Assembly (NCBI GenBank): GCA_046563655.1
Contig: JAJCTO010000011.1
Coordinates: 372,001-436,000 of the forward strand
Source: Yuukianura sp. NJ FZ-2021
Lineage: Eukaryota
Direction of reading: 5' to 3'
Length of the DNA stretch: 64,000 bases
Position numbers and translations under genes: made by a program. Below, piece by piece: positions 1 to 43,308 of the stretch (position 1 is its first letter; each line of letters starts with the position of its first letter). Below the pieces are notes generated by a model. The model was not told the origin of the DNA. It searched no databases and saw only the letters and a program-made list of their open reading frames with translations.

Positions 1-1842
1 GCGTGGAATTTTGTACTAGTTGGTCTCCATCGTAAATTTGTAAAATGTTTTGTAGTGTTCATAAGTTTTAGAGGCTGGTTCAGAGGAGTGGGTTTTTACA
101 GAGCGGTCTACATAACGTCAAATTTTTAAATGTTTCGTATACCTCCTAATGTCGCCTTAAAGTATCACATTTCGTGCTAGAAAGATTTCTTGCTACACCA
201 TGGTTTCTAAAAACCATGCCGGAAATCATGAAATGGAAGAATTCTACCCGCTGAACTAGTTGCTCTCTATTGCGTGAAATTTTGTAGTAGTAGGTCTCCA
301 TCGTGAATTTGTAAAATGTTTTGTAGTGTTCATAAGTTTTAGAGGCTGTTTCAAAGGATTGGGTTTTTACTGAGCGTTCTGATAACGTCAAAATCTAAAT
401 GTTCCGTATACCTCCTAATGTCGCCTTGAAGTATCACATTTCGTGTTAGAAATATTTCTTGCTACACCATGGTTTCTAAAAACCATGCCGGAAATCATGA
501 AATGGAAGAATTCTATCCGCTGAGCTAGTTGGTCTCTATAGCGTGAAATTTTGTACTAGTTGGTCTCCATCGTGAATTTGTAACATGTTTTGTAGTGTTC
601 ATAAGTTTTAGAGGCTGGTTCAGAGGAGTGGGTTTTTACAGAGCGGTCTGCATAACGTCAAATTTTAAAATGTTTTGTATACCTCCTAATGTCGCCTTGA
701 AGTATCACATTCCGTGTTAGAAATATTTCTTGCTACACCATGGTTTCTAAAAACCATGCCGGAAATCATGAAATGGAAGAATTCTATCCGCTGAGCTAGT
801 TGGTCTCTATAGCGTGGAATTTTGTACTAGTTGGTCTCCATCGTAAATTTGTAAAATGTTTTGTAGTGTTCATAAGTTTTAGAGGCTGGTTCAGAGGAGT
901 GGGTTTTTACAGAGCGGTCTACATAACGTCAAATTTTTAAATGTTTCGTATACCTCCTAATGTCGCCTTAAAGTATCACATTTCGTGCTAGAAAGATTTC
1001 TTGCTACACCATGGTTTCTAAAAACCATGCCGGAAATCATGAAATGGAAGAATTCTACCCGCTGAACTAGTTGCTCTCTATTGCGTGAAATTTTGTAGTA
1101 GTAGGTCTCCATCGTGAATTTGTAAAATGTTTTGTAGTGTTCATAAGTTTTAGAGGCTGTTTCAAAGGATTGGGTTTTTACTGAGCGTTCTGATAACGTC
1201 AAAATCTAAATGTTCCGTATACCTCCTAATGTCGCCTTGAAGTATCACATTTCGTGTTAGAAATATTTCTTGCTACACCATGGTTTCTAAAAACCATGCC
1301 GGAAATCATGAAATGGAAGAATTCTATCCGCTGAGCTAGTTGGTCTCTATAGCGTGAAATTTTGTACTAGTTGGTCTCCATCGTGAATTTGTAACATGTT
1401 TTGTAGTGTTCATAAGTTTTAGAGGCTGGTTCAGAGGAGTGGGTTTTTACAGAGCGGTCTGCATAACGTCAAATTTTAAAATGTTTTGTATACCTCCTAA
1501 TGTCGCCTTGAAGTATCACATTTCGTGTTAGAAATATTTCTTGCTACACCATGGTTTCTAAAAACCATGCCGGAAATCATGAAATGGAAGAATTCTACCC
1601 GCTGAACTAGTTGGTCTCTATTGCGTGAAATTTTGTACTAGTTGGTCTCCATCGTGAATTTTTAAGATGTTTTGTAGTGTTCATAAGTTTTAGAGGCTGT
1701 TTCAGAGGATTGGATTTTTACTGAGCTTTCTGATAACGTCAAAATCTAAATGTTCCGTATACCTCCTAATGTCGCCTTGAAGTATCACATTTCGTGTTAG
1801 AAAGATTTCTTGCTACACCATGGTTTCTAAAAACCATGCCGG
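1..1842. repeat. Satellite DNA, 269-271-bp monomer (left arm; runs off window start)
   Basis: CCATGGTTTCTAAAAACCATGCCGG recurs at 198, 467, 738, 1009...; 269+271+271 = 811-bp trimer is duplicated (identical spurious ORFs at 146 and 957). Confidence 0.98.
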
Positions 1843-1921
1843 AGTAGTAGCTAGGATAGGACTTTCACGTCAAATCGACCTTTGGACCCATAAGGTTTTA
1901 AACCCACTGACGTGAGATCCA
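1843..1921 (+). repeat. Left terminal inverted repeat of Polinton
   Basis: AGTAGTAGCTAGGATAGG...GTGAGATCCA is the exact reverse complement of 9453-9531. Confidence 0.97.
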
Positions 1922-2081
1922 AGTAGGACAAGTCCTGAAGGACAAATTAAGGACAAATTAGTTAAGACTAATTAACACTTCATGGGACCAGCATGAACAT
2001 TAATTAAGACTAATTAACATTAAATAAGACTAATTGACGCTTCCTGTCACCGAGTTAATTAGCACTTCCTGTTGGCTTTAA

Positions 2082-2381
2082 CCTGCAAAAATCCCTTAAT
2101 TGGTCATTTCTGGTCTCGGACTTAATTTCCGGTGTTAAGCCACAATTTTCGAAATCCCACCAAAAATTTTGTGCAAAAACTTTCGCGCCAAATTCTTTTC
2201 GCCTAATTTTTTTATCAAAGCTCTTTCAGCCAAGGTAATCGAGTAGCCCGGTCCAAAGTCCATTCAGACACCTGCACAAATCCCTTAATTGGTCATTTCC
2301 GGTCTCGAACTTAACCATTTCCGAAGCTACAATTTTCGAAATCCCGCCAGAAATTATGTGCAAAAACCTTCGCGCCAAATT
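2082..2381. repeat. Subterminal ~110-bp direct repeat pair (about 2082-2193 and 2271-2381)
   Basis: CCTGCA.AAATCCCTTAATTGGTCATTTC.GGTCTCG.ACTTAA...CAATTTTCGAAATCCC...TGTGCAAAAAC.TTCGCGCCAAATT occurs twice. Confidence 0.85.
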
Positions 2382-2550
2382 TCAAAAAAATTAGTGAACA
2401 TTAATTAATTAAACACTTCCTGCTGGCAAGATGCTTCCTAATGCCCTGACAGCCTTCCACTTTTAAACAATAAAGCAAAAAGAAAGGACTAGTCACAAAA
2501 TCTGGTAATCATTTTTTCATTTCAAATTTTTATTAACATTTGTAAATATA

Positions 2551-3249
2551 TTATACAGGAGTATTTTTGGTTAGCACACCATGAAATATGATGCTGTCAA
2601 TTACATCAGCACTGTACGGCTTCATTCGAAGTTCCTCGAGCGTAGAATACATGCTACGTGTAGAACCCTCCATAACAAAGGTTCTTCGACGGATCTGAAA
2701 TTGTTGGTGCTTTGTCAAATCCAGCAAATGGGTGGTATACAGTTCTCGAATGTGTTGATTTGTTTGTGGACAGCAGCAATTAGGACGATCGAAAACACTT
2801 CCATGGTTTTCTTTATTTCGACACTTATTCAAAGCCAATTCGCGTAGATCCTTCAAGTAGCTTCGCTTTGCTTCATGGATAACTCTATCCAAAGATTCGT
2901 CCAAATACGAAGTTGGAAATGATTTTAGAAGTCTCCCAACCAAATGAGGAATTTGATCCAATTTTATATAAGCAGCGCCACACGCTCGAATTAGGAATAC
3001 TTGATCATCTTGTCTTATGAAATGAATATCCGCTTCTCCGAATTTCTGAATTGAATCTACCTGACTCGCCTTCTTACGATTTTGAGCCAGAATTTTTTCA
3101 AAATACGGTAGGTCAGCCATCATTTTTCCCGCCCCAATGTATAGAACGACTAACTTCTCAACCACCGTCGTCAGTTCCTTCTCAGCAAAAGTAATGGAAA
3201 AAGATGAATTTCTGACTTCAATACCGGATGAGGACGAAAGTACTTCCAT
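2551..3249 (-). CDS. Polinton orphan protein A (232 aa), paralog of protein B
   Basis: Intact ATG ORF; aligns along its length with 3635-4351 (VRNS..SI.F....L.TVVE.LV..YI..G.M...LP.FEK.L.QNR; IHFI; L..IP.LV..LLK; YL.ESLD..IHE.KR.Y; NCCC; D.TKHQQ; YS.D.I..I.FHG). Confidence 0.85.
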   Translation of the reverse strand: MEVLSSSSGIEVRNSSFSITFAEKELTTVVEKLVVLYIGAGKMMADLPYFEKILAQNRKKASQVDSIQKFGEADIHFIRQDDQVFLIRACGAAYIKLDQIPHLVGRLLKSFPTSYLDESLDRVIHEAKRSYLKDLRELALNKCRNKENHGSVFDRPNCCCPQTNQHIRELYTTHLLDLTKHQQFQIRRRTFVMEGSTRSMYSTLEELRMKPYSADVIDSIIFHGVLTKNTPV

Positions 3250-3634
3250 GTTGAACTAATTTAAACTGATCGTCTAAAACAGCCGTTCAGAGTTCCTTCT
3301 TCTCAGGACTAGACGAGACTAAGTAAAACCAGTTAAGACTTCCAGTTAAGCACTAATTGGGACTAATTGATTTTCTTTTTTGTCCGTTAGCACTGGGTGG
3401 AGCTACCCTCGACAAATCGTTGGGATTGGCTCTTGTACAAAAACGTTTTTGTACGAATACCCTTTTAATGAACATGTGATTAGAGGGAATTTAATGCCAT
3501 CCACATTCAGCGCAGCACCCAGTGGTACCTATACAGTTCAGCCATCATCAGTTTTACTATTGTCTTAAAATTTACAATTGTTACTATTGTCCTAAAGTTT
3601 ACGATTGCTTTTACATATTTGCAGCATACCAAGG

Positions 3635-4351
3635 ATGGACGTAAACCTGCCGGAAGTCTATCTAAGCAAGGGTCTTATTGCCGTCAGGAATTCTGGAAAT
3701 TCAATTATGTTTTTATCCGAGCAGCTACCCACCGTTGTAGAAGAACTAGTCAAAGCATATATTGAAGAAGGAAGGATGATTAAGCATCTTCCACATTTTG
3801 AGAAGCTGTTATTGCAGAACCGTAATAATGCAGCAAAGCAAAATGAATACTCGCCGGATGAACCACTACTCCCGATTCATTTCATCAAGGACGCATCAGC
3901 TCGTGTCATCCTTATCCGAAGCGGCGCGCCTGTTATGATCGATTTGGACCATATTCCCCAGCTGGTTGAGTCACTTCTAAAATGTGGCTATTTTCCTATC
4001 ACTTATTTGGAGGAATCCTTGGACATGCTGATTCATGAAACTAAACGCGGCTACATCGAGAAACTCCGCAATGAGGCGTTCCGATCCTGTCACAACAAAT
4101 TGGAAATTGATCCTTGCAGGAGCATTTTTGGCGAGTTCAACTGTTGCTGCACAACACTTGATATATCAACCTACAGTCAACATGTACTGGACGTTACTAA
4201 GCACCAGCAAATCGAAATTAACAGATGGAAATGGGGAATAGATAGTTTCTATGGTAAGAGAGAACTTGCTGTACTTGAGAGTATTAGACTAGAGAGATAT
4301 TCCAGTGACATAATATGGAAAATTACTTTTCATGGTAAAAGAGATTGCTAA
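3635..4351 (+). CDS. Polinton orphan protein B (~238 aa from first ATG), paralog of protein A
   Basis: Intact ORF MDVNLPEV...; full-length similarity to protein A; AATAAA just downstream (~4371). Confidence 0.85.
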   Translation: MDVNLPEVYLSKGLIAVRNSGNSIMFLSEQLPTVVEELVKAYIEEGRMIKHLPHFEKLLLQNRNNAAKQNEYSPDEPLLPIHFIKDASARVILIRSGAPVMIDLDHIPQLVESLLKCGYFPITYLEESLDMLIHETKRGYIEKLRNEAFRSCHNKLEIDPCRSIFGEFNCCCTTLDISTYSQHVLDVTKHQQIEINRWKWGIDSFYGKRELAVLESIRLERYSSDIIWKITFHGKRDC

Positions 4352-4379
4352 ACAGTCTTTATTCAAGTCAAATAAATTA

Positions 4380-5144
4380 TCAATTATTTCTGTACACAGT
4401 ACATCCGACATCGGGAAATATATTATTACGTATTCTAAACCTATCATCCTGGGATTGGTGCAGGTCGATAAATACATGACCATACGGCTTTTTCATAACG
4501 TCTTCATAGCACGTTTCCAGAGCTTCGTTACGTTTTCCGTTTTTTGTTAGCTGACGTCCAAAGCAGAGAACTTGAGAGACTTCTCGAGGATTTTTTGTGA
4601 AACAAATATACTGGCAATTTGTTGTTATCGTTCGTTGTCCTTTCTCGAAGAAGTTTTGGGTGACGAAAATTATGCTCACATTCCTGTGGTGGCTCGTTCT
4701 AGTAAATGCTGAGACGATATCCGTACTAGCACAAACTTCATGCATAAGATCGTCAAGTACGACGATTCGATGAGTGTTGTAGGGGCTCGCAAAGTCGTCT
4801 GGTAATCCGTAGTGAAATTTAATTGTTGGGATGTGACTTTTCAGATCCTGAAAAAATTCATTCTCTGGCTCCCCATAACAATACAGAATATCATTAATCG
4901 GAACATCCACCATTTCAAAACGTCGAAGGAGTAATTCCTTAAGAACCGTCGACTTTCCACTTTGGCTTGCTCCGCTAATTGTCATGCAGAATGGCGCCTT
5001 TAGCCTATAATCAAAACACTCATCGCGTTCCGCCATGGTACCATGTTCCGCTGTGGGATCATCCGTTTGCTTATGTGCAGTGTATACATGGCGTTTAAGG
5101 TTATCCGAACGTGTGAACGTACTGCTGCAAACGCTACAATCCAT
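4380..5144 (-). CDS. FtsK/HerA-superfamily (A32-like) Polinton packaging ATPase with N-terminal C2H2 zinc finger
   Basis: Walker A GASQSGKS, Walker B IVVLDD, SHHRNVSIIFVTQN, KPYGHVFID typical of Polinton ATPases; N-terminal CSVC...FTRSDNLKRHVYTAH; first ATG at 5144. Confidence 0.9.
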   Translation of the reverse strand: MDCSVCSSTFTRSDNLKRHVYTAHKQTDDPTAEHGTMAERDECFDYRLKAPFCMTISGASQSGKSTVLKELLLRRFEMVDVPINDILYCYGEPENEFFQDLKSHIPTIKFHYGLPDDFASPYNTHRIVVLDDLMHEVCASTDIVSAFTRTSHHRNVSIIFVTQNFFEKGQRTITTNCQYICFTKNPREVSQVLCFGRQLTKNGKRNEALETCYEDVMKKPYGHVFIDLHQSQDDRFRIRNNIFPDVGCTVYRNN

Positions 5145-5212
5145 GCTGTTGTGAATGCTGGAACACAAATGATGAGGGACAGAAGTCGCTTACCTCCCTC
5201 ATCACACCAATG

Positions 5213-5486
5213 CTTTATATACACCACCACCAGTGTTGTTAGGAGGAGGAGGAGGAGGAGGAGGAGGAGGAGGAGGAAATGAGGAGGAGGAGGAGGAGGA
5301 AATGAGGAGGAGGAGGAGGAGGAGGTGAGGAGGAGGAGGAGGAGGAGGTGAGGAGGAGGAGGAGGAGGAGGAGGAGGAGGAGGAGGAGATGAGGAGGAGG
5401 AGGAGATGAGGAGGAGGAGGAGGAGGAGGCACCACCACCACCACCACCACTATAAAACTGCTGCAATCGGATAAAACTGTTCAGTT
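5213..5486. promoter_or_regulatory. Candidate bidirectional promoter: divergent TATA boxes flanking a (GGA)n tract
   Basis: Minus-strand TATATAAAG at 5221-5213; plus-strand TATAAAA at 5451 with initiator-like TCAGTT at 5481, 30 bp downstream. Confidence 0.6.
5241..5450. repeat. (GGA)n polypurine microsatellite (5241-5429) followed by (CAC)n
   Basis: About 190 bp of near-pure AGG repeats. Confidence 0.98.
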
Positions 5487-5499
5487 GCATTTGTACATA

Positions 5500-5934
5500 A
5501 TGCCGGTTTACTGTGACATTTGCTCCACGTCATTTTCCAGCGCATACGCATTAAATCAACATAATCGCGTTGCTCATTCAGACGAAGCTATGGAATCTGA
5601 GGCAGAAACGGAAAGTGAAACAGAAACGGAAACTGAAGAAGAAGAAGATGACTCTAAGGCACATTCTGGCATGAGTAAATCCAGCTTATCGTTAATCCTT
5701 CATGCGCTACACAATGCAGATGTTGGAGTTCAATGGCTGACTTTGGACAGTTTACGCAACCTTGTGGAAGGCACAGACGATTCTGATTCAGATGACGATG
5801 AAGAGGAATCATCCGACAAGTTGGATTCAAGTCAATTATATTATTTAATAGCCGTTGTAAAAGCCGGAATAAGAAATGTAATCAATATTAACAAAGCAGA
5901 ATTTTTAAAAATGCTGAACAAAATGGTTTTATAA
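5500..5934 (+). CDS. Small C2H2 zinc-finger / acidic protein (144 aa)
   Basis: MPVYCDICSTSFSSAYALNQHNRVAH, two D/E tracts, preceded by TATA/Inr, AATAAA at ~5985. Confidence 0.8.
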   Translation: MPVYCDICSTSFSSAYALNQHNRVAHSDEAMESEAETESETETETEEEEDDSKAHSGMSKSSLSLILHALHNADVGVQWLTLDSLRNLVEGTDDSDSDDDEEESSDKLDSSQLYYLIAVVKAGIRNVININKAEFLKMLNKMVL

Positions 5935-5990
5935 ACATTTATTGTTTTCAGTTTACAACCTAACATTTTTTTCACACAAGTCAAAATAAA

Positions 5991-8900
5991 TTATTGAGAA
6001 ATATCTCTATGTCCAAATGCTAATGTGTTAATTCTATCAACACCATATCGTTTGGTATCTAAACCGTTCAGAGCCCTTTTTAACGTTAATTCTGTGAAAA
6101 TTCTATGCTCTACACTTCTAAATCCTCTCATCCATACACGAGTTTGAACGTCTTCCTTGAGCACTTTTTCGAAATCTTCATATGCTATTTGGTTGTTGAC
6201 AGCAGTTTTAGTTATTCCTTTGACTTTCTTCGTGTATTCGTCTTTGATGAACCAGCTGCCGTCAGTCTTCTTTTGGTAAATATTTTTCCCATCAAAGCCT
6301 TTGCAGACTTGAAGTTTCAAGGACCTAATGGTGTACATTTTTGGACGAGGACAAAAGACGTAAGTGACTACAGAACCGGCAGCTTCATCTTTGAATTTTC
6401 CCAAAACTTTCTTGTTTGTGGGATCATGAAACTCTCCAAAAATGGGGTGATCGGATTCATATTCGCTCATGTCATACAAGTCCTTGTCATGGAGCATGTC
6501 TTGATAAACGTCATCAGTTTGGATGTGATAGATGAAGGAATCTGAAATAAAAAGTTAGCTTTAGTTTAAAGTTAAATTGTTGGATAGTTCAACATTTACC
6601 AGTGTCAGTATAAATAAGGCGACACTTGTCAACGCCGTATTTCGCCTGTATCGTATAGTGATGTCGATACATGATGCTCTTTGCTAGCTCAAGCACTGTG
6701 ACGCCCGTATATATTGGCTTGTTTAAAGTGACTTGAAGTCTCTTCATCATAAAGATGCACGTTGACTCGTTAATTGGAATTACATTCTGGACGGTGGGTT
6801 TCTTGTTGTAACGTAGAGCTTCTTCCATTGACGTAACGATACGAACATTTTGACGTTTTCGAACTTGCTCGATCGCTTTGCCAAATGCAGAATTGTTGAG
6901 CAGTTTCCAATAATCCTTTTCAAAGTCTGATGTAGCCCTTTTTCTCATTTCGGTGTTAAAGTCGATAAAATCCTTCATCCATGGTCTCTGAGTGAAGGAA
7001 ATTCCGCGGTGGAGTTTTGTAACTTTCACTCCAAGCTTCAGGTACTCCATCAAAATGGCGTGATGTAGAATATAATTCTTCTTATTATTCAGATCAGCCA
7101 CAAGTTTCTTAACTTTGAAAATTCCAGGACCTGTGTTGAGTTTTTCCGTCAATTGTAACTGATGACTGGATAACTCACTTTCTGCAACTGTACGGTTAAC
7201 TGGAGCCGGAGGAAAATCATTCAGCTTGTCATGCAATGAAGGATCAATTTCCAAATCCACTTCAAGCATGTATCCTTTTTCATTGTCCATGATGAAGTGG
7301 TTTTCTTGAAGTTTCATCAACTCTTTCTCTGTTAGCCATTGGAACTGACCAGTTGGAAGCGGAAGACTCATGCTTTTGCCCTAGTGAATAATTAAATTTT
7401 AGAAAATAATTTTTCATAGACGTTGTTGAATACTTACATATAAGTTGTTGGCATCAATGTAGATGAGGTAACTGGATTCCTTTTCTGGATCGTACTCATC
7501 TCCCATGTACTTGTTGTTCGCTCTAGCCTCTCGCATGGATCCAACGCTAACGTATCCACCTATAAATAAAATGAATTAGAAAATCTCTAGCATTTGACTT
7601 CTAGGTTTTACCTCTAATAGCATGCTCCAGCCAACAATGCATGGTTGGATCTGTGATTAGCTCCAATTCCACTCCTGATTTCTTGAGAACGCAATCCATT
7701 GAAATCATAGGTAACGAGAAGTAATGGGCCAGGTCCAATTCGTAAGCATCAAACATTATTTTTCGGATTCCCTCCATCACATCAGCCAGAAGCGAGACAT
7801 CTAGCCTAACGTACATGTCATGCCAGTCTCCCATATTTTGAATGTTGTAGCTCTTCCATACTTTTTGAGCGTGCTCATACACTTTATCTTCAATGTTTGT
7901 CTCCGTCAAGTCATTGTAGAAATCTTCTTTTGGCGGTAGAGTTGTGATTTCGAAATCCTTGCAAGACTTCATGAGAGAATAAGGGTAAACACCCTTTTCG
8001 AAGAGAAGTTCAATGTCATCGTGTTGTGCAAACTCTTGTCTTGTGATTGGAAACTTGGCATTAGGATCGGCTCGCATCACTTTCACTAATTTGTCTAAGG
8101 ATTTCAGTGTAAATCCAAGACTGTCTGTAAACCTCAACTTGAAGGGCTTCTTCTGTCAGCGTGGTGGTTCTTCATCCTCATCGAAATCATCGTGGTAACC
8201 AGGAACGATGCTCAGCGACATGTATTTTTCACTGCTTTTGGGAATAACAGTGATGTCCTTGATGATTCCTTCCTGCTTAAGCTTTCCAGCAGATTGTACA
8301 ATGAAGTGCACATCGTACGAGGAGAAGTTGTGCATAAAGACGGGAAACTCCTTCTTGATTTGCGCTTGGAGGTTGCAGTCTTGATGAGCCATTCCGATGT
8401 AGTTGAACGGTGGAAGATGCGAATGGTGTCGTACTTTGGTTCCATCCAATGTCTTCTCGCAAAAACAGCAATTTTTTTCAAGGGCGGCAGCACTTCTTTG
8501 CGATGGAGTCAGATTAAGCATATCTGGAGCAATTTTTTCATAGTACCGAACTTCCTCTTCCAGTGTTTTGGAGTACTCAGTAATGCTGTGAATGAATTTT
8601 GCAGCAACGTCTTCGTCATCGTTAGTGATATGATAATATTCGCCATGTCTTCGCTTTCCGTTGAAGTCGACACAAACCCAAGCATATCCACATGGCTTAT
8701 GAAGGTGAGTGCAACACTTATTTACAGGTTGTACTGGTCTTCCACGTATTTGTTCCTTATGCTCTCGGCGCTCCTCCTCTTCTATAGTTGAGGGATTAAA
8801 TTTTGGGAGGAAAGCTTCAAAATCAGCATAGAATCGAAAAGGCACTGGTTGAGTCCTGGCCCACTTGTTAAAAGTCAATTTGTTGTCTGTAGGATATACA

Positions 8901-9370
8901 ACTTTTTGAAGATCCAACGACGCGCAATACTTGATGTGCTGTTGAAGAGTTTGAGATGATTGAAAATTGGAGAGACAATTGCGACAAATGTGCAGTGTCG
9001 TATGCACATTTGGCGCTCTCATTAATGCTTCAAGGTTTCGAATCAGAATGAAGTGCGCGTTGTTTTCTTGCATTAGACACATGAGGTCGACGTGTATTTC
9101 CTTCGACTGTTGGGAATTGTACAGTATTGAGATCTTGCTTTGTATAAAATTGAATGATTCAATTTTGCTCAACTTCCGCGGTTGTGATTCATCCATGTCA
9201 TAACCAAGAACGGTTATAGAAATGTTCGGGTTGAGTTCTTCAAAGTGAGGGATCTGCTCCAAAGTCATCGGAAAATGGAGTCCTTTAGTGTTCAACTTGT
9301 GCTCATAAGGCTGGTATGTTTTAATAAGCTTGTCTACGCGACATCTGTTATTATTTCTTGAACGGAAGTG
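5991..9370 (-). pseudogene. Protein-primed family B DNA polymerase (pPolB), 4 exons, 5'-truncated, one in-frame stop
   Basis: ExoI YADFE, ExoII HNFSSYD, FTDS, KGVYPY, IRGG, YIDANNLYG, KLLNNSAFGK, YTDTDS, KGI motifs. Introns 7560-7611, 7381-7437 and 6542-6599 (all GT-AG) restore the frame. TGA at 8156-8158. Endonuclease-VII-like insert CCFC...VRHHSH...AHQDCN. Confidence 0.92.
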
Positions 9371-9452
9371 CTAATTAGTGTGCGCAGGAAGTATTTAATT
9401 AGTCTTAATTGATTCTAATTAGTATTAATTAATCCGACTTTGATAAGTCATA

Positions 9453-9531
9453 TGGATCTCACGTCAGTGGGTTTAAAACCTTATGGGTCCAAAGGTCGAT
9501 TTGACGTGAAAGTCCTATCCTAGCTACTACT
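9453..9531 (-). repeat. Right terminal inverted repeat of Polinton
   Basis: Reverse complement of 1843-1921. Confidence 0.97.
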
Positions 9532-12500
9532 GCCGGAAATCATGAAATGGAAGAATTCTACCCGCTGAACAAGTTGGTCTCTATTGCGTGCAATTTTGTA
9601 CAAGTTGGTCTCCATCGTGAATTTTTAAGACGTTTTGTAGTGTTCATAAGTTTTAGAGGCTGTTTCAGAGGATTGGGTTTTTACTGAGCTTTCTGATAAC
9701 GTCAAAATCTAAATGTTCCGTATACCTCCTAATGTCGCCTTGAAGTATCACATTTCGTGTTAGAAAGATTTCTTGCTACACCATGGTTTCTAAAAACCAT
9801 GCCGGAAATCATGAAATGGAAGAATTCTACCCGCTGAACAAGTTGGTCTCTATTGCGTGCAATTTTGTACTAGTTGGTCTCCATCGTGAATTTGTAAAAT
9901 GTTTTGTAGTGTTCATAAGTTTTAGAGGCTGGCTCAGAGGAGTGGGTTTTTACAGAGCGGTCTGCATAACGTCAAATTTTAAAGTGTTGCGTATACCTCC
10001 TAATGTCGAATGTCGCCTTAAAGTATCACATTTCGTGTTAGAAATATTTCTTGCTACACCATGGTTTCTAAAAACCATGCCGGAAATCATGAAATGGAAG
10101 AATTCTATCCGCTGAGCTAATTGGTCTCTATAGCGTGAAATTTTGTACTAGTTGGTCTCCATCGTGAATTTGTAAAATGTTTTGTAGTGTTCATAAGTTT
10201 TAGAGGCTGATTCAGAAGAGTGGGTTTTTACAGAGCTGTCTGCATAACGTCAAATTTCAAAATGTTCTGTATGCCTCCTAATGTCGCCTTGAAGTATCAG
10301 GTTTCGTGTTAGAAATATTTTTTGCTACACCGTGGTTTCTAAAAGCCATGCCGGAAGTCATGAAATGGAAGAATTCTATCCGCTGAGCTAGTTGGTCTCT
10401 ATAGCGTGAAATTTTGTACTAGTTGGTCTCCATCGTGAATTTGTAAAATGTTTTGTAGTGTTCATAAGTTTTAGAGGCTGATTCAGAAGAGTGGGTTTTT
10501 ACAGAGCGGTCTGCATAACGTCAAATTTTAAAATGTTCCGTATACCTCCTAATGTCGCCTTGAAGTATCACATTTCGTGTTAGAAATATTTCTTGCTACA
10601 CCATGGTTTCTAAAAACCATGCCGGAAATCATGAAATGGAAGAATTCTATCCGCTGAGCTAGTTGGTCTCTATTGCGTGAAATTTTGTACTAGTAGGTCT
10701 CCATCGTGAATTTGTAAAATGTTTTGTAGTGTTCATAAGTTTTAGACGCTGTTTCAAAGGATTGGGTTTTTACTGAGCGTTCTGATAACGTCAAAATCTA
10801 AATGTTCCGTATACCTCCTAATGTCGCCTTGAAGTATCACATTTCGTGTTAGAAAGATTTCTTGCTACACCACGGTTTCTAAAAACCATGCCGGAAAATA
10901 TGAAATGGAAGAATTCTACCCGCTGAACTAGTTGGTCTCTATTGCGTGAAATTTTGTACTAGTAGGTGTCCATCGTGAATTTGTAAAATGTTTTGTAGTG
11001 TTCATAAGTTTTAGAGGCTGATTCAGAAGAGCGGGTTTTTACAGAGCGGTGTGCATAACGTCAAATTTTAAAATGTTCCGTATACCTCCTAATGTCGCCT
11101 TGAAGTATCACATTTCGTGTTAGAAATATTTCTTGCTACACCATGGTTTTTAAAAACCATGCCGGAAATCATGAAATGGAAGAATTCTATCCGCTGAGCT
11201 AGTTGGTCTCTATAGCGTGAAATTTTGTACTAGTTGGTCTCCATCGTGAATTTGTAAAATGTTTTGTAATGTTCATAAGTTTTAGAGGCTGACTCAGAAG
11301 AGCGGGTTTTTACAGAGCGGTGTGCATAACGTCAAATTTTAAAATGTTCCGTATACCTAATAATGTCGCCTTGAAGTATCACATTCCGTGTTAGAAATAT
11401 TTCTTGCTACACCATGGTTTCTAAAAACCATGCCGGAAATCATGAAATGGAAGAATTCTATCCGCTGAGCTAGTTGGTCTCTAGCGTGAAATTTTGTACT
11501 AGTTGGTCTCCATCGTGAATTTGTAAAATGTTTTGTAGTGTTCATAAGTTTTAGAGGCTGATTCAGAAGAGCGGGTTTTTACAGAGCGGTGTGCATAACG
11601 TCAAATTTTAAAATGTTCCGTATACCTCCTAATGTCGCCTTGAAGTATCACATTTCGTGTTAGAAATATTTCTTGCTACACCATGGTTTTTAAAAACCAT
11701 GCCGGAAATCATGAAATGGAAGAATTCTATCCGCTGAGCTAGTTGGTCTCTATAGCGTGAAATTTTGTACTAGTTGGTCTCCATCGTGAATTTGTAAAAT
11801 GTTTTGTAATGTTCATAAGTTTTAGAGGCTGACTCAGAAGAGCGGGTTTTTACAGAGCGGTGTGCATAACGTCAAATTTTAAAATGTTCCGTATACCTGA
11901 TAATGTCGCCTTGAAGTATCACATTCCGTGTTAGAAATATTTCTTGCTACACCATGGTTTCTAAAAACCATGCCGGAAATCATGAAATGGAAGAATTCTA
12001 CCCGCTGAACTAGTTGGTCTCTATTGCGTGAAATTTTATACTAGTTGGTATCCATCGTGAATTTTTAAGACGTTTTGTAGTGTTCATAAGTTTTAGAGGC
12101 TGTTTCAGAGGATTGGGTTTTTACTGAGCTTTCTGATAACGTCAAAATCTAAATGTTCCGTATACCTCCTAATGTCGCCTTGAAGTATCACATTTCGTGT
12201 TAGAAAGATTTCTTGCTACACCATGGTTTCTAAAAACCATGCCGGAAATCATGAAATGGAAGAATTCTACCCGCTGAACAAGTTGGTCTCTATTGCGTGC
12301 AATTTTGTACTAGTTGGTCTCCATCGTGAATTTGTAAAATGTTTTGTAGTGTTCATAAGTTTTAGAGGCTGGCTCAGAGGAGTGGGTTTTTACAGAGCGG
12401 TCTGCATAACGTCAAATTTTAAAGTGTTGCGTATACCTCCTAATGTCGAATGTCGCCTTAAAGTATCACATTTCGTGTTAGAAATATTTCTTGCTACACC

Positions 12501-15500
12501 ATGGTTTCTAAAAGCCATGCCGGAAGTCATGAAATGGAAGAATTCTATCCGCTGAGCTAGTTGGTCTCTATAGCGTGAAATTTTGTACTAGTTGGTCTCC
12601 ATCGTGAATTTGTATAATGTTTTGAAATGATCATAAGTTTTAGAGGCTGATTCAGAAGAGTGGGTTTTTACAGAGCGGTGTGCATAACGTCAAATTTTAA
12701 AATGTTCCGTATACCTGATAATGTCGCCTTGAAGTATCACATTCCGTGTTAGAAATATTTCTTGCTACACCATGGTTTCTAAAAACCATGCCGGAAATCA
12801 TGAAATGGAAGAATTCTACCCGCTGAACTAGTTGGTCTCTATTGCGTGAAATTTTGTACTAGTTGGTCTCCATCGTGAATTTTGAAGATGTTTTGTAGTG
12901 TTCATAAGTTTTAGAGGCTGTTTCAGAGGATTGGATTTTTACTGAGCTTTCTGATAACGTCAAAATCTAAATGTTCCGTATACCTCCTAATGTCGCCTTG
13001 AAGTATCACATTTCGTGTTAGAAAGATTTCTTGCTACACCATGGTTTTTAAAAACCATGCCGGAAATCATGAAATGGAAGAATTCTATCCGCTGAGCTAG
13101 TTGGTCTCTATAGCGTGAAATTTTGTACTAGTTGGTCTCCATCGTGAATTTGTAAAATGTTTTGTAATGTTCATAAGTTTTAGAGGCTGACTCAGAAGAG
13201 CGGGTTTTTACAGAGCGGTGTGCATAACGTCAAATTTTAAAATGTTCCGTATACCTGATAATGTTGCCTTGAAGTATCACATTCCGTGTTAGAAATATTT
13301 CTTGCTACACCATGGTTTCTAAAAACCATGCCGGAAATCATGAAATTGAAGAAGTCTATCCGCTGAGCTAGTTGGTCTCTATTGCGTGAAATTTTGTACT
13401 AGTTGGTCTCCATAGTGAATTTGTAAAATGTTTTGTAGTGTTCATAAGTTTTAGAGGCTGATTCAGAAGAGTGGGTTTTAACAGAGCTGTCTGCATAACG
13501 TCAAATTTCAAAATGTTCCGTATGCCTCCTAATGTCGCCTTGAAGTATCAGGTTTCGTGTTAGAAATATTTTTTGCTACACCATGGTTTCTAAAAGCCAT
13601 GCCGGAAGTCATGAAATGGAAGAATTCTATCCGCTGAGCTAGTTGGTCTCTATAGCGTGAAATTTTGTACTAGTTGGTCTCCATCGTGAATTTGTAAAAT
13701 GTTTTGTAGTGTTCATAAGTTTTAGAGGCTGGTTCAGAGGAGTGGGTTTTTACAGAGCGGTCTGCATAACGTCAAATTTTAAAGTGTTTTGTATACCTCC
13801 TAATGTCGCCTTAAAGTATCACATTTCGTGTTAGAAAGATTTCTTGCTACACCACGGTTTCTAAAAACCATGCCGGAAATAATGAAATGGAAGAATTCTA
13901 CCCGCTGGACTAGTTGGTCTCTATTGCGTGAAATTTTGTACTAGTTGGTCTCCATCGTGAATTTGTAAAATGTTTTGTAGTGTTCATAAGTTTTAGAGGC
14001 TGATTCAGAAGAGTGGGTTTTTACAGGGCGGTCTGCATAACGTCAAATTTTAAAATGTTCCGTATACCTCCTAATGTCGCCTTGAAGTATCACATTTCGT
14101 GTTAGAAAGATGTCTTGCTACACCACGGTTTCTAAAAACCATGCCGGAAATCATGAAATGGAAGAATTCTATCCGCTGAGCTAGTTGGTCTCTATAGCGT
14201 GAAATTTTGTACTAGTAGGTCTCCATCGTGAATTTGTAAAATGTTTTGTAGTGTTCATAAGTTTTAGAGGCTGTTTCAAAGGATTGGGTTTTTACTGAGC
14301 GTTCTGATAACGTCAAAATCTAAATGTTCCGTATACCTCCTAATGTCGCCTTGAAGTATCACATTTCGGGTTAGAAATATTTCTTGCTACACCATGGTTT
14401 CTAAAAACCATGCCGGAAATCATGAAATGGAAGAATTCTATCCGCTGAGCTAGTTGGTCTCTATAGCGTGAAATTTTGTACTAGTTGGTCTCCATCGTGA
14501 ATTTGTAAAATGTTTTGTAGTGTTCATAAGTTTTAGAGGCTGATTCAGAAGAGTGGGTTTTTACAGAGCGGTCTGCATAACGTCAAATTTTAAAATGTTC
14601 CGTATACCTCCTAATGTCGCCTTGAAGTATCACATTTCGTGTTAGAAATATTTCTTGCTACACCATGGTTTCTAAAAACCATGCCGGAAATCATGAAATG
14701 GAAGAATTCTATCCGCTGAGCTAGTTGGTCTCTATAGCGTGCAATTTTGTACTAGTTGGTCTCCATCGTGAATTTGTAAAATGTTTTGTAGTGTTCATAA
14801 GTTTTAGAGGCAGGTTCAGAGGAGTGGGTTTTTACAGAGCGGTCTGCATAACGTCAAATTTTAAAATGTTCCGTATGCCTCCTAATGTCGCCTTGAAGTA
14901 TCACATTTCGTGTTAGAAAGATTTCTTGCTACACCACGGTTTCTAAAAACCATGCCGGAAATCATGAAATGGAAGAATTCTATCCGCTGAGCTAGTTGGT
15001 CTCTATAGCGTGAAATTTTGTACTAGTAGGTCTCCATCGTGGATTTGTAAAATGTTTTGTAGTGTTCATAAGTTTTAGAGGCTGTTTCAAAGGATTGGGT
15101 TTTTACTGAGCGTTCTGATAACGTCAAAATCTAAATGTTCCGTATACCTACTAATGTCGCCTTGAAGTATCACATTTCGTGTTAGAAATATTTCTTGCTA
15201 CACCATGGTTTCTAAAAACCATGCCGGAAATCATGAAATGGAAGAATTCTATCCGCTGAGCTAATTGGTCTCTATAGCGTGAAATTTTGTACTAGTTGGT
15301 CTCCATCGTGAATTTGTAAAATGTTTTGTAGTGTTCATAAGTTTTAGAGGCTGGTTCAGAGGAGTGGGTTTTTACAGAGCGGTCTGCATAACGTCAAATT
15401 TTAAAATGTTTCGTATACCTCCTAATGTCGCCTTAAAGTATCACATTTCGTGTTAGAAAGATTTCTTGCTACACCACGGTTTCTAAAAACCATGCCGGAA

Positions 15501-18079
15501 ATTATGAAATGGAAGAATTCTACCCACTGGACTAGTTGGTCTCTATAGCGTGAAATTTTGTACTAGTTGGTCTCCATCGTGAATTTGTAAAATGTTTTGT
15601 AGTGTTCATAAGTTTTAGAGGCTGATTCAGAAGAGTGGGTTTTTACAGAGCGGTCTGCATAACGTCAAATTTTAAAATGTTCCGTATACCTCCTAATGTC
15701 GCCTTGAAGTATCACATTTCGTGTTAGAAAGATTTCTTGCTACACCATGGTTTCTAAAAACCATGCCGGAAATCATGAAATGGAAGAATTCTACCCGCTG
15801 AACAAGTTGGTCTCTATTGCGTGCAATTTTGTACTAGTTGGTCTCCATCGTGAATTTGTAAAATGTTTTGTAGTGTTCATAAGTTTTAGAGGCTGGCTCA
15901 GAGGAGTGGGTTTTTACAGAGCGGTCTGCATAACGTCAAATTTTAAAGTGTTGCGTATACCTCCTAATGTCGAATGTCGCCTTAAAGTATCACATTTCGT
16001 GTTAGAAATATTTCTTGCTACACCATGGTTTCTAAAAACCATGCCGGAAATCATGAAATCGAAGAATTCTATCCGCTGAGCTAATTGGTCTCTATAGCGT
16101 GAAATTTTGTACTAGTTGGTCTCCATCGTGAATTTGTAAAATGTTTTGTAGTGTTCATAAGTTTTAGAGGCTGGTTCAGAGGAGTGGGTTTTAACAGAGC
16201 TGTCTGCATAACGTCAAATTTCAAAATGTTCCGTATGCCTCCTAATGTCGCCTTGAAGTATCAGGTTTCGTGTTAGAAATATTTTTTGCTACACCATGGT
16301 TTCTAAAAGCCATGCCGGAAGTCATGAAATGGAAGAATTCTATCCGCTGAGCTAGTTGGTCTCTATAGCGTGAAATTTTGTACTAGTTGGTCTCCATCGT
16401 GAATTTGTAAAATGTTTTGTAGTGTTCATAAGTTTTAGAGGCTGGTTCAGAGTAGTGGGTTTTTACAGAGCGGTCTGCATAACGTCAAATTTTAAAATGT
16501 TTCGTATACCTCCTAATGTCGCCTTAAAGTATCACATTTCGTGTTAGAAAGATTTCTTGCTACACCACGGTTTCTAAAAACCATGCCGGAAATTATGAAA
16601 TGGAAGAATTCTACCCACTGGACTAGTTGGTCTCTATAGCGTGAAATTTTGTACTAGTTGGTCTCCATCGTGAATTTGTAAAATGTTTTGTAGTGTTCAT
16701 AAGTTTTAGAGGCTGATTCAGAAGAGTGGGTTTTTACAGAGCGGTCTGCATAACGTCAAATTTTAAAATGTTCCGTATACCTCCTAATGTCGCCTTGAAG
16801 TATCACATTTCGTGTTAGAAAGATTTCTTGCTACACCATGGTTTCTAAAAACCATGCCGGAAATCATGAAATGGAAGAATTCTACCCGCTGAACAAGTTG
16901 GTCTCTATTGCGTGCAATTTTGTACTAGTTGGTCTCCATCGTGAATTTGTAAAATGTTTTGTAGTGTTCATAAGTTTTAGAGGCTGGCTCAGAGGAGTGG
17001 GTTTTTACAGAGCGGTCTGCATAACGTCAAATTTTAAAGTGTTGCGTATACCTCCTAATGTCGAATGTCGCCTTAAAGTATCACATTTCGTGTTAGAAAT
17101 ATTTCTTGCTACACCATGGTTTCTAAAAACCATGCCGGAAATCATGAAATCGAAGAATTCTATCCGCTGAGCTAATTGGTCTCTATAGCGTGAAATTTTG
17201 TACTAGTTGGTCTCCATCGTGAATTTGTAAAATGTTTTGTAGTGTTCATAAGTTTTAGAGGCTGGTTCAGAGGAGTGGGTTTTAACAGAGCTGTCTGCAT
17301 AACGTCAAATTTCAAAATGTTCCGTATGCCTCCTAATGTCGCCTTGAAGTATCAGGTTTCGTGTTAGAAATATTTTTTGCTACACCATGGTTTCTAAAAG
17401 CCATGCCGGAAGTCATGAAATGGAAGAATTCTATCCGCTGAGCTAGTTGGTCTCTATAGCGTGAAATTTTGTACTAGTTGGTCTCCATCGTGAATTTGTA
17501 AAATGTTTTGTAGTGTTCATAAGTTTTAGAGGCTGGTTCAGAGGAGTGGGTTTTTACAGAGCGGTCTGCATAACGTCAAATTTTAAAATGTTTTGTATAC
17601 CTCCTAATGTCGCCTTAAAGTATCACATTTCGTGTTAGAAAGATTTCTTGCTACACCATGGTTTCTAAAAACCATGCCGGAAATTATGAAATGGAAGAAT
17701 TCTACCCGCTGAACTAGTTGGTCTCTATTGCGTGAAATTTTGTACTAGTTGGTCTCCATCGTGAATTTGTAAAATGTTTTGTAGTGTTCATAAGTTTTAG
17801 AGGCTGGTTCAGAGGAGTGGGTTTTTACAGAGCGGTCTGCATAACGTCAAATTTTAAAATGTTTTGTATACCTCCTAATGTCGCCTTAAAGTATCACATT
17901 TCGTGTTAGAAAGATTTCTTGCTACACCATGGTTTCTAAAAACCATGCCGGAAATTATGAAATGGAAGAATTCTACCCGCTGAACTAGTTGGTCTCTATT
18001 GCGTGAAATTTTGTACTAGTTGGTCTCCATCGTGAATTTGTAAAATGTTTTGTAATGTTCATAAGTTTTAGAGGCTGAT
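9532..18079. repeat. Satellite DNA, ~270-bp monomer (right arm, ~31 copies)
   Basis: Same monomer as 1-1842; variant with AATGTCG duplication at ~10002, 12442, 15966, 17057; 1091-bp tetramer repeated (15747 vs 16838). Confidence 0.98.
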
Positions 18080-40273: not shown

Positions 40274-43200
40274 ATGAAGCCAGATCTTTTGTCGTTGATA
40301 CTCAACCGAATAACGGACGCTTCTATCAAGTATCCCAGGAGTCATAACATTTTCCTTGGCTATGGAACTGCTGGAATTAGAAACAAGTAAACCTTCAATT
40401 AACTTCTTTCATTGCTTATTCTTCCTCCTGATAAATGTCTTTGGAAAAATTGTGTTAGTGTGTACTATTTTTGAAAATTCTGAAAATTTTTTTACAGACA
40501 CTACATGGATCCCTGATAACAAAAAACAAAAAAAATTTGACCGGAAATCAAAAAAAATTCTCAAAAAACTTAACCTAACCTAACCTAACTTGACACTAAA
40601 TAGCCTCTAACTTTTTTGTTGTTGACTTTTTTTGAAAAATTCTTCCAGAATCGTGTTCAGCATACTTTAGTTAGCCTAGAAACCAATTTTCATGCAATTC
40701 AGAAAAAAAAAAATTTTCAAAAAAAATTTTTTTTGGAAATTTTTTTTGATTTCCGGTCAAATTTTTTTTGTTTTCTGTTATCAGGGGTCCATGTAGTGTA
40801 TGCACAAAAAATTTCAGAATTTTCAAAAATAGTACACACTAACACAATTTTACCATGTCTTTTGCTAGAATTTTAACTAAAATTACAGGGAGTCCCTGTT
40901 GCACCATGTTATGTTTCGAATGGGGATTTTGGCTGCCCTCCGGTCTAAGAGTACTAATGGTAAGGTTAACACTTTCGTGCGTTGAATTCTAAAATCTTCG
41001 AACTTAGTTTTTAGGTACCTTACTTACCTTACTCCTGCTGTTGTTTCCTAACCCCCTGTTTTCTTTTTCAGCTACCGTGGGGGTTATGATTACGGCTTCT
41101 CACAATCCAGTAGGCGACAATGGCCTGAAGTTGATAGATCCTGCAGGTGATATGCTTACGGCGTCTTGGGAACTGCATGCCGCAGTGATCGCGAATGTTG
41201 GTGACGAAGATTTGTGTTCCGCGGTCCAGGAGGTCATAAGGAAAGAGAAGGTGGATATGAGTGTCAAAAGTTCGGTGTATTTGGGGAGAGACACAAGGTA
41301 AATTCAAGCTTAATGTACATCAACCAATCAATCTCCTCAGAGAATTGAAGTATGCTGTATTATGTCGAATTTGCAGGCAAAGTGGAATTGAATACTCAAA
41401 GGCTCTACAGTTCGGGGTGAATTCCGTTGACACTGACGCTCATTTTGTCGACTGCGGTGTCACAACAACTCCGTTGCTCCACTATCTGGTTGTCTGCGCC
41501 AACAATCCTCAAGATTTCAAGGAACCGTACGCCGATTGCTACTACTCGCAACTATCCGCAGCTTTCCGGAACATCATTGCCCTGGTAATACTATTATTAT
41601 AGTCGGGCCGTTTTCAAGATCCTAAGTTTTCTGTGGTTGGGAAAAAATACAACTCTCACTTCACGGATTCCACCCTTCCCGCGCTGGCTGGTATGGGCAG
41701 ATCAATGAGAATACTCATTGAGGTGCCCAAAGTGGAATTGAGTGGAACCCATGAAGTGAGAGTTGTATTTTTTCCCAACCACAGAAAACTTAGGATCTTG
41801 AAAACGGCCCGACTTTAGTAAACTAACCCACCCATTTTTCAAATCTACGTTTGAAATGCGAATTCATTAGCTTGCAAATCGGATTTCAGAAACCGAGAAC
41901 TGGAGCATATCTGCCTTCCCTTTTATTCGATGGCGCCAACGGTGTTGGTGCTGACGCTGTGTATGAAATAGCGAAGCGGATTACAGCCGAATCACTTGAC
42001 ATTAAAATCTTCAACGATGGAAAAAGCGGCGGAGTGCTGAATCACGAGGTAATCCATCCAAAGTAATGTTTTCTCACACGCCCTCACGACGACGAATTTT
42101 GGGTGTTCAGTTGCGTAATCAAGTCACTACTGTACAGTATGTGTATGTATAGTGCGGAGCAGACTTTGTAAAAGTTGAAATTCGTGGACCACAAAACTTC
42201 CCAGTTGAGCCGCTCGCACGTTGCGTCAGCTTCGATGGAGATGCTGATCGTGTCATTTACTTCTATTACGACAACCAAAAGACGTTCCGAATGCTTGACG
42301 GAGACAAGATTGGAGTTTTATTCGCGCAGCACTTGGGTGAGCTTGTTAGGGACTCTGGAATTTCCGGGCTCAGGTTCGGCCTTGTGCAAACTGCGTATGC
42401 AAATGGAAGTTCGACAAATTATGTTCAGAATCAACTCGTGAGACTAAAGAACATTATATTACTATATTTTAGCATTCATATACCTTGATATATTCATATA
42501 TTTTATTGTGTTCTGGCATCAGGGAATTCCTGTCTGCTTCGCTCGTACTGGAGTTAAGCACTTGCATCATGCAGCTATAACCAATTTCGATATTGGTGTT
42601 TACGTGGAAGCCAACGGACACGGCACAGTCGTTTTTAACAAAACAGCGGTGGATGCCATTACGCAAGCGGCGGAGTAGGTCTCATTTTTATCCGAATTAA
42701 TTGGCTCAATACCGCTCAGCCTCTATTTAGCAAAAGCGTTTCTCTGTGTATTCTAGAAAAGGAGGCAGCGTTGCTGCAATTGAGTTGTCTCGTTTCATGC
42801 AACTCATCAATCAGTATGTGGGAGATGCTCTTTCCGACATGCTAACAGTGGAAGCTATTTTACACTCTCGTGGTTGGAGTATCGAGGACTGGGATGCCAT
42901 TTATACGGATTTTCCAAATCGCCTTCTGAAGGTTTATGTAGAAGACAGAAATTCAATCGAAGTGAGGGATGATGGGCCAAAGGTCAATGTTGAAAGTCCA
43001 GCCGGAGTACAGGAGAAAGTAGACGCGCTTACAGCCAAGTATAAGAATGGGAGGAGCTTTTTCCGGTAAGTGCAGCGAGGTATTAGTTATGTTGAAAGTA
43101 AAATTGATGAAAGATATTTATTAAAGATGTTATTTATGCATGCGCCATGTGTAGACCATCAGGAACCGAGGATATCGTGCGAGTCTTTGCTGAGGCAGAC

Positions 43201-43308
43201 ACACAGGAGAATGCAGATTTGTTGGGAGCCGAAGTTTGTCAACTTGTGTACGACTTTTGCAAGGGAGTAGGTACACGACCAAACCTCCCATCTAAAGTGT
43301 TCAGCTAA
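40274..43308 (+). CDS. PGM3: Phosphoacetylglucosamine mutase (multi-exon)
   Basis: YGTAG (exon 1), GVMITASHNP active-site loop, DGANGVG, SFDGDADR metal loop, VQTAYANG, EANGHG, GDALSD, RPSGTED; GT-AG introns. Confidence 0.95.
40443..40854. mobile_element. MITE in PGM3 intron 1, GG...CC termini (Merlin- or MULE-like)
   Basis: ~115-bp imperfect TIRs, 8-bp TSD ATGTCTTT (40435-40442, 40855-40862), internal (AACCT)n. Confidence 0.88.
41600..41815. mobile_element. MITE in PGM3 intron (Tc1/mariner-like)
   Basis: ~70-bp near-perfect TIRs AGTCGGGCCGTTTTCAAGATCC.../...GGATCTTGAAAACGGCCCGACT flanked by TA. Confidence 0.85.

Follow-up and report, generated by a model that had tools for sequence, protein, structure and literature searches.

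The present analysis concerns a stretch of 64,000 nucleotides (hereafter the window) from Yuukianura sp. NJ FZ-2021 (GenBank assembly GCA_046563655.1, contig JAJCTO010000011.1, positions 372,001 to 436,000 of the forward strand). It contains a Polinton-like element whose gene for a protein-primed polymerase B (pPolB) is interrupted by three short blocks with GT and AG ends, referred to as J1, J2 and J3. The sequence supports the view that these blocks behave as U2-type spliceosomal introns, and each of the three positions was found again in other polymerases. Taken together, the observations are likely to be explained by genuine introns that are old features of a polymerase clade and that are carried here by a recent 7.7-kb deletion derivative. 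The features discussed below are collected in Table 1.

Table 1. Features of the Polinton-like element, of its surroundings in the window, and of the related contig L099 (positions of L099 refer to that contig).
Feature	Position	Strand	Description
Polinton-like element	1843..9531	minus	7,689 bp, termini 5'-AG...CT-3', inside a 271-bp satellite array
Left terminal inverted repeat	1843..1921		79 nt, 100% complementary to the right arm
Right terminal inverted repeat	9453..9531		79 nt
Target-site duplication GCCGG	1838..1842 (left), 9532-9536 (right)		5 bp
pPolB gene	9268..5991	minus	protein-primed polymerase B, split by three GT-AG blocks
pPolB exon 1	7612..9268	minus	exonuclease half as far as IRG; first in-frame ATG 9268-9266
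Intron 1 (J1)	7560..7611	minus	52 nt, GTAAAA...TTTATAG, phase 1, in IRG/G
pPolB exon 2	7438..7559	minus	122 nt
Intron 2 (J2)	7381..7437	minus	57 nt, GTAAGT...TCACTAG, phase 0, in DANNLY/G (motif A)
pPolB exon 3	6600..7380	minus	781 nt
Intron 3 (J3)	6542..6599	minus	58 nt, GTAAAT...TATTTCAG, phase 1, in YTDT/DS (motif C)
pPolB exon 4	5991..6541	minus	TAA stop 5993-5991
Candidate fourth intron (weak)	8153..8206	minus	54-nt in-frame GT..AG block containing a TGA
A32-like packaging ATPase	4380..5144	minus	N-terminal C2H2 finger; uninterrupted
Acidic C2H2 zinc-finger open reading frame (ORF)	5500..5934	plus	divergent from the ATPase
ORF-A (unknown)	2551..3249	minus	paralogue of ORF-A'
ORF-A' (unknown)	3635..4351	plus	divergently oriented paralogue of ORF-A
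Phosphoacetylglucosamine mutase (AGM1) host gene	40274-43308		open model of 558 aa after removal of eight GT-AG introns
RING-finger membrane protein host gene	~44.5-45.7 kb
L099 intron	4836-4928		93 nt, GT-AG, phase 0, between DAN and NLYG, three codons off J2
L099 intron	5631-5736		106 nt, GT-AG, phase 0; without counterpart in the window pPolB
L099 intron	5825-5956		132 nt, GTAAAT..TTTTCAG, phase 1, exact J3 codon position

The polymerase gene and its three interruptions

The element was found within a 271-bp satellite that occupies positions 1-1843 and 9531-18079, and one satellite monomer is interrupted by it. The site GCCGG occurs singly in the satellite consensus (..TGCCGGAAATC..) and is doubled around the element. 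Because all 79 of 79 positions of the inverted ends are complementary and the 5-bp duplication is intact, the insertion is considered recent. The satellite itself comprises about 38 monomers that are 93% alike, several of which contain an open frame of 123 codons.

The polymerase reading frame is open from position 9370 on the minus strand. When the three blocks were skipped from the ATG at 9268, a coding sequence of 3111 nt was obtained, corresponding to 1037 codons including the TAA stop, and an AATAAA signal was located 48 nt downstream of this stop (5943-5938). A search with the polymerase returned 9,476 matches at E ≤ 0.001, including insect homologues filed as 'uncharacterized protein' with 37-41% identity. 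In Pfam, family PF03175 was matched on exon 1 (7613-8155) with an E value of 8.6e-05, which lies under the curated cut-off. In the segment 9269-9452, which separates the right terminal repeat from the start of pPolB, about six words resembling TAATTA or CAATTA, and thus homeodomain sites, were noted by eye. This segment may be the promoter region.

Removal of the blocks joins ..AIRG/GYVS.., ..DANNLY/GKSM.. and ..YTDT/DSF.., at sites which we take to be the YxGG-like motif, motif A and motif C of protein-primed B polymerases. J1 splits the first glycine codon of IRG/G (G / GT), and J3 splits the aspartate codon of YTDT/DS (G / AT). The length of J2 keeps the frame, yet three in-frame stop codons lie inside it. 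At all three blocks, cutting at the GT and AG ends restored one open frame together with the residues found in homologues. Several alternative GT-AG pairs near the junctions also left the frame open, so that an open frame is a weak control; only the reported pairs, however, retained every homologous residue.

The continuity of homologous proteins across the blocks was evaluated by tblastn with nine homologues. At the first block, the aligned pieces abutted within 0-2 residues in eight of the nine, while those of P0024 overlapped by 30. At the third block, the pieces met on the same or an adjacent residue in all eight homologues that extend so far. The second block appeared as a gap of 19 residues in the homologue within a single alignment. 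The A+T content of the blocks was 0.75, 0.79 and 0.76, compared with 0.56-0.62 for the exons. The original prediction had placed introns of 52, 57 and 58 nt at exactly the coordinates recovered here, and homologues align without gaps once they are skipped. Retention of any one of them would bring a stop codon within 3-8 codons (AIRGKT-stop, ..NLYVSIQQRL-stop and YTDTGKC-stop, respectively). An origin of the blocks as repeats or introner-like copies was also considered and rejected, as blastn-short searches against the window, the other blocks and 101 related loci (L001-L101) returned only chance matches of 9-19 nt.

Two host genes of the window, AGM1 and a RING-finger membrane protein gene, provided ten introns for comparison, with lengths of 502, 112, 79, 305, 104, 85, 82, 89, 83 and 64 nt and an A+T content of 0.58-0.74. 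Their donors read GTAAAC, GTAAGG, GTAAAT, GTAATA, GTAATC, GTGAGA, GTAGGT, GTAAGT, GTAAGG and GTAAGC, and the splice-site hexamers of the polymerase introns are of the same kinds. The earlier description of the polymerase introns as host-sized is thus accurate only in a rough sense, all three being shorter than every one of the ten host introns.

That the introns are removed in life is indicated indirectly, because the exons have stayed open and conserved in lineages that share the positions at 27-57% protein identity. In our reading, J1-J3 would be ordinary constitutive introns of a nuclear polymerase gene transcribed by polymerase II.

Intron positions in related polymerases

Related loci were examined in DNA, and homologous polymerases as predicted proteins. 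Metagenomic relatives were represented by the best 80 of 548 confirmed cases (597 pattern matches), a set in which the contigs encoding P0002, P0027 and others are not included. Scans of genome and viral contigs with a clade alignment recovered only loci of 34-38% identity.

Among 106 related loci, the J1 site (IRG/G) was continuous in 89, not covered in 15 and flagged in two. The J2 site (NLY/G) was continuous in 95, not covered in eight and flagged in three, and the J3 site (DT/D) was continuous in 102, not covered in two and flagged in two. With the exception of L099, all flagged loci proved to contain simple indels, a frameshift, a missing stretch or a deletion. L099, filed as viral, is a contig rich in A+T whose pPolB is only 27-31% identical to P0001, an intron-free relative that was used as a query. 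Its three introns are listed in Table 1, the last of them lying at exactly the J3 codon. Neighbouring ORFs of L099 match the dUTPase, TBP and TFIIB families.

In the protein collection, interruptions were recognised by read-through, since a reading frame called without regard to introns runs on into the intron and exposes it. For J3, 186 homologous proteins were inspected: 148 were continuous (..DT-D..), five were broken, 32 lacked the motif and one was a false match (P0026). The broken proteins continue after ..DT with GKSILFSEF-end (P0002), GNISIV... (P0038), GKLNIEMF... (P0210), GM-end (P0211) and G-end (P0235), and a sixth lineage, P0308, continues with GKS-end. The residue after ..DT was thus G in six of six interrupted proteins, and after this G came K, N, M or a stop. 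Such a pattern is expected if donors of the form G/GTAAR, GTAAY or GTATG are read through. On these sequences, such agreement is very unlikely to have arisen by chance.

Read-through signatures were also observed at the other two sites. For J1, P0159 starts with MFL/GGYVSVG and P0308 with MLNPFFLLFL/GGYVSVG; both belong to one lineage, 53-57% identical to the window polymerase, and their starts look like a translated pyrimidine tract ending in ..TA/G. The J1 site was continuous in 129 other proteins, 116 of them by pattern and 13 as variants judged by eye. For J2, P0311 starts with MCQ/GVAMSMPLP, its Q being CAG directly before the glycine codon. This protein belongs to the 15-member P0160 cluster (about 51-54% identical), and 14 further frames, judged by eye from 21 that were flagged, start at a conserved methionine three residues after J2. 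Two of these 14, P0211 and P0235, also end at J3 and are accordingly reading frames of exon 3 only.

The combinations of positions differed among lineages. P0308 has J1 and J3 without J2, the P0160 cluster has J2 without J3, and P0002 has J3 only. In P0031 and P0032, relatives of 51-53% identity, homology stops right after FIDYNT and the next residue is G, which suggests a further phase-1 intron site that is absent from the window pPolB. On phylogenetic trees, P0027 was the partner of the window polymerase (97/87), and the clade that contains both had a support of 93/93.

It had been proposed that this lineage gained the introns. That part of the original prediction was not borne out, as each position is common to other polymerases of 27-57% identity. 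Since the positions recur in relatives, the introns are better regarded as inherited family features than as a private gain.

Defects and gene content of the copy

The earlier expectation that intron removal yields a continuous polymerase was correct for the frame and the motifs and overlooked an in-frame TGA (8158-8156, minus strand), which is codon 371 and lies upstream of all three introns. The TGA sits in a variable acidic loop, 6-55 residues long in the 74 homologues in which it could be measured. A 54-nt in-frame block around it (8206-8153) was considered as a fourth intron and judged an unlikely one, given its exon-like A+T content of 0.50, a poor donor (GTTCCT) and the variable length of the loop in homologues. 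Judged from its sequence, the block is probably coding and the TGA a nonsense codon, although the chance that this assignment is wrong is appreciable.

Homology to P0307 (1,264 residues) starts at P0307 residue 319, corresponding to window position 9349. This point precedes the first ATG by 27 codons and lies about 100 nt away from the terminal repeat. From this it follows that the N-terminal third of the protein, approximately 318 residues, is missing.

The remaining genes of the element were compared with known families and with related loci. The ATPase was assigned to PF04665 by Pfam (E 1.5e-06; 28.3 bits versus a cut-off of 22.8), and its product is 51-53% identical to that of the ORF directly after pPolB in L051 and L001, the closest loci in DNA. 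The claim that no other gene of the element has a coding intron agrees with the ATPase gene, which is uninterrupted relative to its L001 and L051 homologues. The ATPase and zinc-finger ORF proteins both begin with a similar C2H2 finger, and the gap between the two genes (5190-5500) is filled by an imperfect (CCT)n tract at 5241-5429. ORF-A and ORF-A' (232 and 238 amino acids) are 44% identical to each other, and neither matched a Pfam or PHROGs family. For ORF-A', no usable Atlas match and no PDB sequence match was obtained, and its AlphaFold model (pLDDT 60.5) matched no solved fold, the best Foldseek hit having an E value of 0.037 and a TM of 0.13.

Neither Pfam nor PHROGs nor tblastn with 1,031 ORFs of the 101 related loci detected an integrase, protease or capsid gene in the element, and the tblastn search matched only pPolB and the ATPase. 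Specifically, no rve integrase was found by Pfam in the four ORFs of at least 174 amino acids outside pPolB (1843-9531). For the capsid, Pfam, PHROGs and the fold comparison of ORF-A' were all negative, although weak models and strong divergence of capsids could conceal a relative. With respect to the features by which Polintons are recognised, the element has a protein-primed pPolB, an A32/FtsK-type ATPase, inverted ends and a duplication in the 5-6 bp class, and it lacks an integrase, a capsid and the length of about 15-20 kb (here 7,689 bp).

The TGA, the missing N-terminal third and the absent genes together mark the copy as a deletion derivative, probably moved in trans. It most likely is non-autonomous, with an active polymerase being improbable whatever the splicing.

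Elsewhere in the window, the rve matches given by Pfam belong to a long terminal repeat (LTR) retroelement at 29.7-33.9 kb, outside the Polinton-like element. A frame of 1,079 codons at 52321-55557 (minus strand) encodes a reverse transcriptase together with an RFX DNA-binding domain (PF02257, E 6e-10), a combination that is unusual among retroelements. This frame, at 52-55 kb, is flanked by large inverted arrays of another repeat family (48015-49453 and 56351-60505), 88-95% complementary to each other. In the host gene AGM1, the long introns 40387-40888 and 41585-41889 each carry one palindromic insert resembling a miniature inverted-repeat transposable element, as judged by eye. When a 95-residue exon of AGM1 was compared with known proteins, the top matches had 58-64% identity and were spread over molluscs, insects, a collembolan, an annelid, a brachiopod and a priapulid, compared with 54-58% identity for fungal matches. 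By this measure the host is probably an invertebrate animal with no close relative in the protein collection, and the matches do not single out an arthropod.

Interpretation and comparison with known systems

Under the favoured explanation of genuine, old introns in a recent deletion derivative, the gene would be transcribed from the minus strand in the host nucleus, with polyadenylation after the AATAAA signal, and a continuous frame would arise only once the host spliceosome had removed 7611-7560, 7437-7381 and 6599-6542. The introns would be copied along because the element multiplies as DNA, and as old, heritable features of this polymerase clade they would predate the insertion of this copy. 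With inverted ends and duplication intact, the copy probably owed its movement to proteins provided in trans. Lacking integrase and capsid genes, truncated at the N-terminus and bearing the TGA, it most likely makes no active polymerase. Transcription, splicing and mobilisation in trans are thus what we infer from an anatomy that is directly visible, namely the blocks, the homologue continuity across them, the shared positions and the defects.

Several observations weigh against this explanation. In DNA, introns were seen in L099 alone among the 106 related loci, and outside L099 the shared positions were deduced from read-through signatures in predicted proteins. P0027, the nearest relative (74% identity), is continuous at J3, and the DNA of L001 and L051 is continuous at motif C. 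P0307, although 91% identical to the interrupted P0002, reads YTDTDS without interruption. Either the introns are easily lost, or they were gained in parallel, or some of the continuous records are transcripts or gene models. On the trees, the J3 state must change 2-4 times, with poor resolution among the inner branches. The polymerase introns (52-58 nt) are also shorter than the host introns of the window (64-502 nt), and if 8206-8153 were a fourth intron after all, the TGA would be no defect.

The alternative that fared best accepts the introns as real and attributes their shared positions to parallel gains at favoured sites instead of common descent. The changes required for J3 on the trees fit such gains, as does the low identity of L099 (27-31%), with its motif A intron three codons off J2 and one extra intron; P0031 and P0032 also point to a break at a different site, after FIDYNT. 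Parallel gains are harder to reconcile with the identical J3 codon and phase in at least eight lineages, and with J1 and J2 being shared as well, within the one clade supported at 93/93. The exon context of J3 is ..CTG/AT.. in the window and ..CAG/AT.. in L099, and that of the window is not a strong proto-splice site. One ancient intron set that was lost repeatedly would account for the pattern, and so would parallel gains at identical codons; the latter is regarded as a serious alternative, though less likely than not.

A broader version of the favoured explanation is that the polymerases of a whole Polinton-like clade have diverged by 40-70% at the protein level while keeping the same introns in their catalytic core. 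We consider it unlikely. If it were true, the elements would have persisted in the nucleus over the long term, as residents or as viruses, and would rely on host splicing for their replication enzyme, and the patchwork of interrupted and continuous genes, including the pair at 91% identity, would reflect repeated precise loss via spliced RNA copies, or control by retention.

A regulated, tissue-dependent retention of one or more of the introns, the switch raised in the original prediction and comparable to that in the P element, would give complete polymerase only in tissues with full splicing and a truncated, exonuclease-only protein wherever an intron is kept. The location of the introns in catalytic motifs would suit such a switch, as would the stop within 3-8 codons, which leaves an N-terminal product. 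The donors GTAAAA, GTAAGT and GTAAAT and the acceptors, on the other hand, are of the same kinds as those of constitutive host introns, and with a TGA upstream of all three introns this copy cannot itself act as a switch. Regulated retention is accordingly rated as quite improbable.

Still less probable is a domesticated host gene that gained its introns after takeover and belongs to no mobile element. A host gene would typically have introns and exons conserved over long times, and the element is without integrase and capsid genes. Nevertheless, perfect 79-nt inverted ends enclose the gene, and the insertion, marked by a 5-bp duplication, splits a satellite monomer. A viral A32-type ATPase comes next to the polymerase, an order also present in L001 and L051, and the polymerase gene contains an in-frame stop.

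The proposal that the blocks are no introns, being three small insertions with chance GT and AG ends in a decaying pseudogene, is close to refuted: although this copy is damaged elsewhere (TGA, missing N-terminus) and many metagenomic relatives bear frameshifts or deletions (L056, L057, L073), all blocks run from GT to AG, restore the frame and the exact conserved residues, have 15-20 points more A+T and are not repeats, resembling nothing in the window or the 101 loci, while other lineages are interrupted at the same codons, with G after ..DT in six of six, and L099 has a clean GT-AG intron at J3 in its DNA.

The practical consequence of genuine introns is that gene calling without regard to them splits the pPolB of this clade into exon-sized pieces. 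Protein databases already contain such pieces, as exemplified by P0211 and P0235 (exon 3 only), P0308 and the P0160 cluster, and intron-split copies may be taken for fragments or pseudogenes in counts. Conservation of the introns would further demonstrate that the polymerase has long been expressed through the RNA machinery of the host nucleus, which bears on the question of whether animal Polintons are viruses or resident transposons. The copy in the window, however, behaves by its anatomy as a defective derivative.

Among known systems, the Polinton/Maverick family with its adintovirus-type pPolB is the closest. Its members usually have a duplication of 5-6 bp and AG termini, and the present element resembles them in pPolB, the A32-type ATPase, the inverted repeats, the 5-bp duplication and the AG..CT ends. 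It differs in its three pPolB introns, in its length of 7.7 kb and in that no integrase, protease or capsid gene was found.

Adenovirus, a nuclear DNA virus related to Polintons, expresses its protein-primed B polymerase from the E2B region by means of host splicing. There, a short upstream leader is joined to one long coding body, whereas in the present gene three short introns cut the coding body at the catalytic motifs. The Drosophila P element likewise has short introns in its enzyme gene, and retention of its third intron, which has been demonstrated experimentally, needs bound splicing repressors. The likeness lies in a DNA transposon enzyme gene with short introns whose retention would truncate the protein; the difference is that, in the present copy, a stop codon precedes the three introns.

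The earlier remark that Polinton genes are intron-poor is consistent with the literature, in which the core genes of Polintons and Mavericks are called intronless in the passages bearing on the subject. Intact vertebrate Mavericks are reported as intronless in such a passage of PMC8097293, and a nematode Maverick is described in part of bioRxiv 10.1101/2022.07.12.499685 as having intronless core genes and cargo genes with introns. A section of PMC10120064 describes endogenous viruses in general as intronless and gives this as the reason why surveys usually use gene finders of the prokaryote type, which do not consider introns. No report of spliceosomal introns in a Polinton pPolB was found in the full-text literature searched, a scope that did not take in Repbase, supplements or some of the Polinton papers. 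The sharing of intron positions within one polymerase clade is presented as modestly novel.

The nearest published parallel is given by the integrated polinton-like viruses of dinoflagellates, for which the relevant part of PMC12166617 reports introners in 25% of viral elements, including full-length ones. The two cases have in common spliceosomal-type introns inside integrated elements. Introners, as described there, are repeated, made by transposons and young relative to their hosts. Unlike them, the introns of the present polymerase are unique sequences, and they lie at codons common to polymerases of 27-57% identity.

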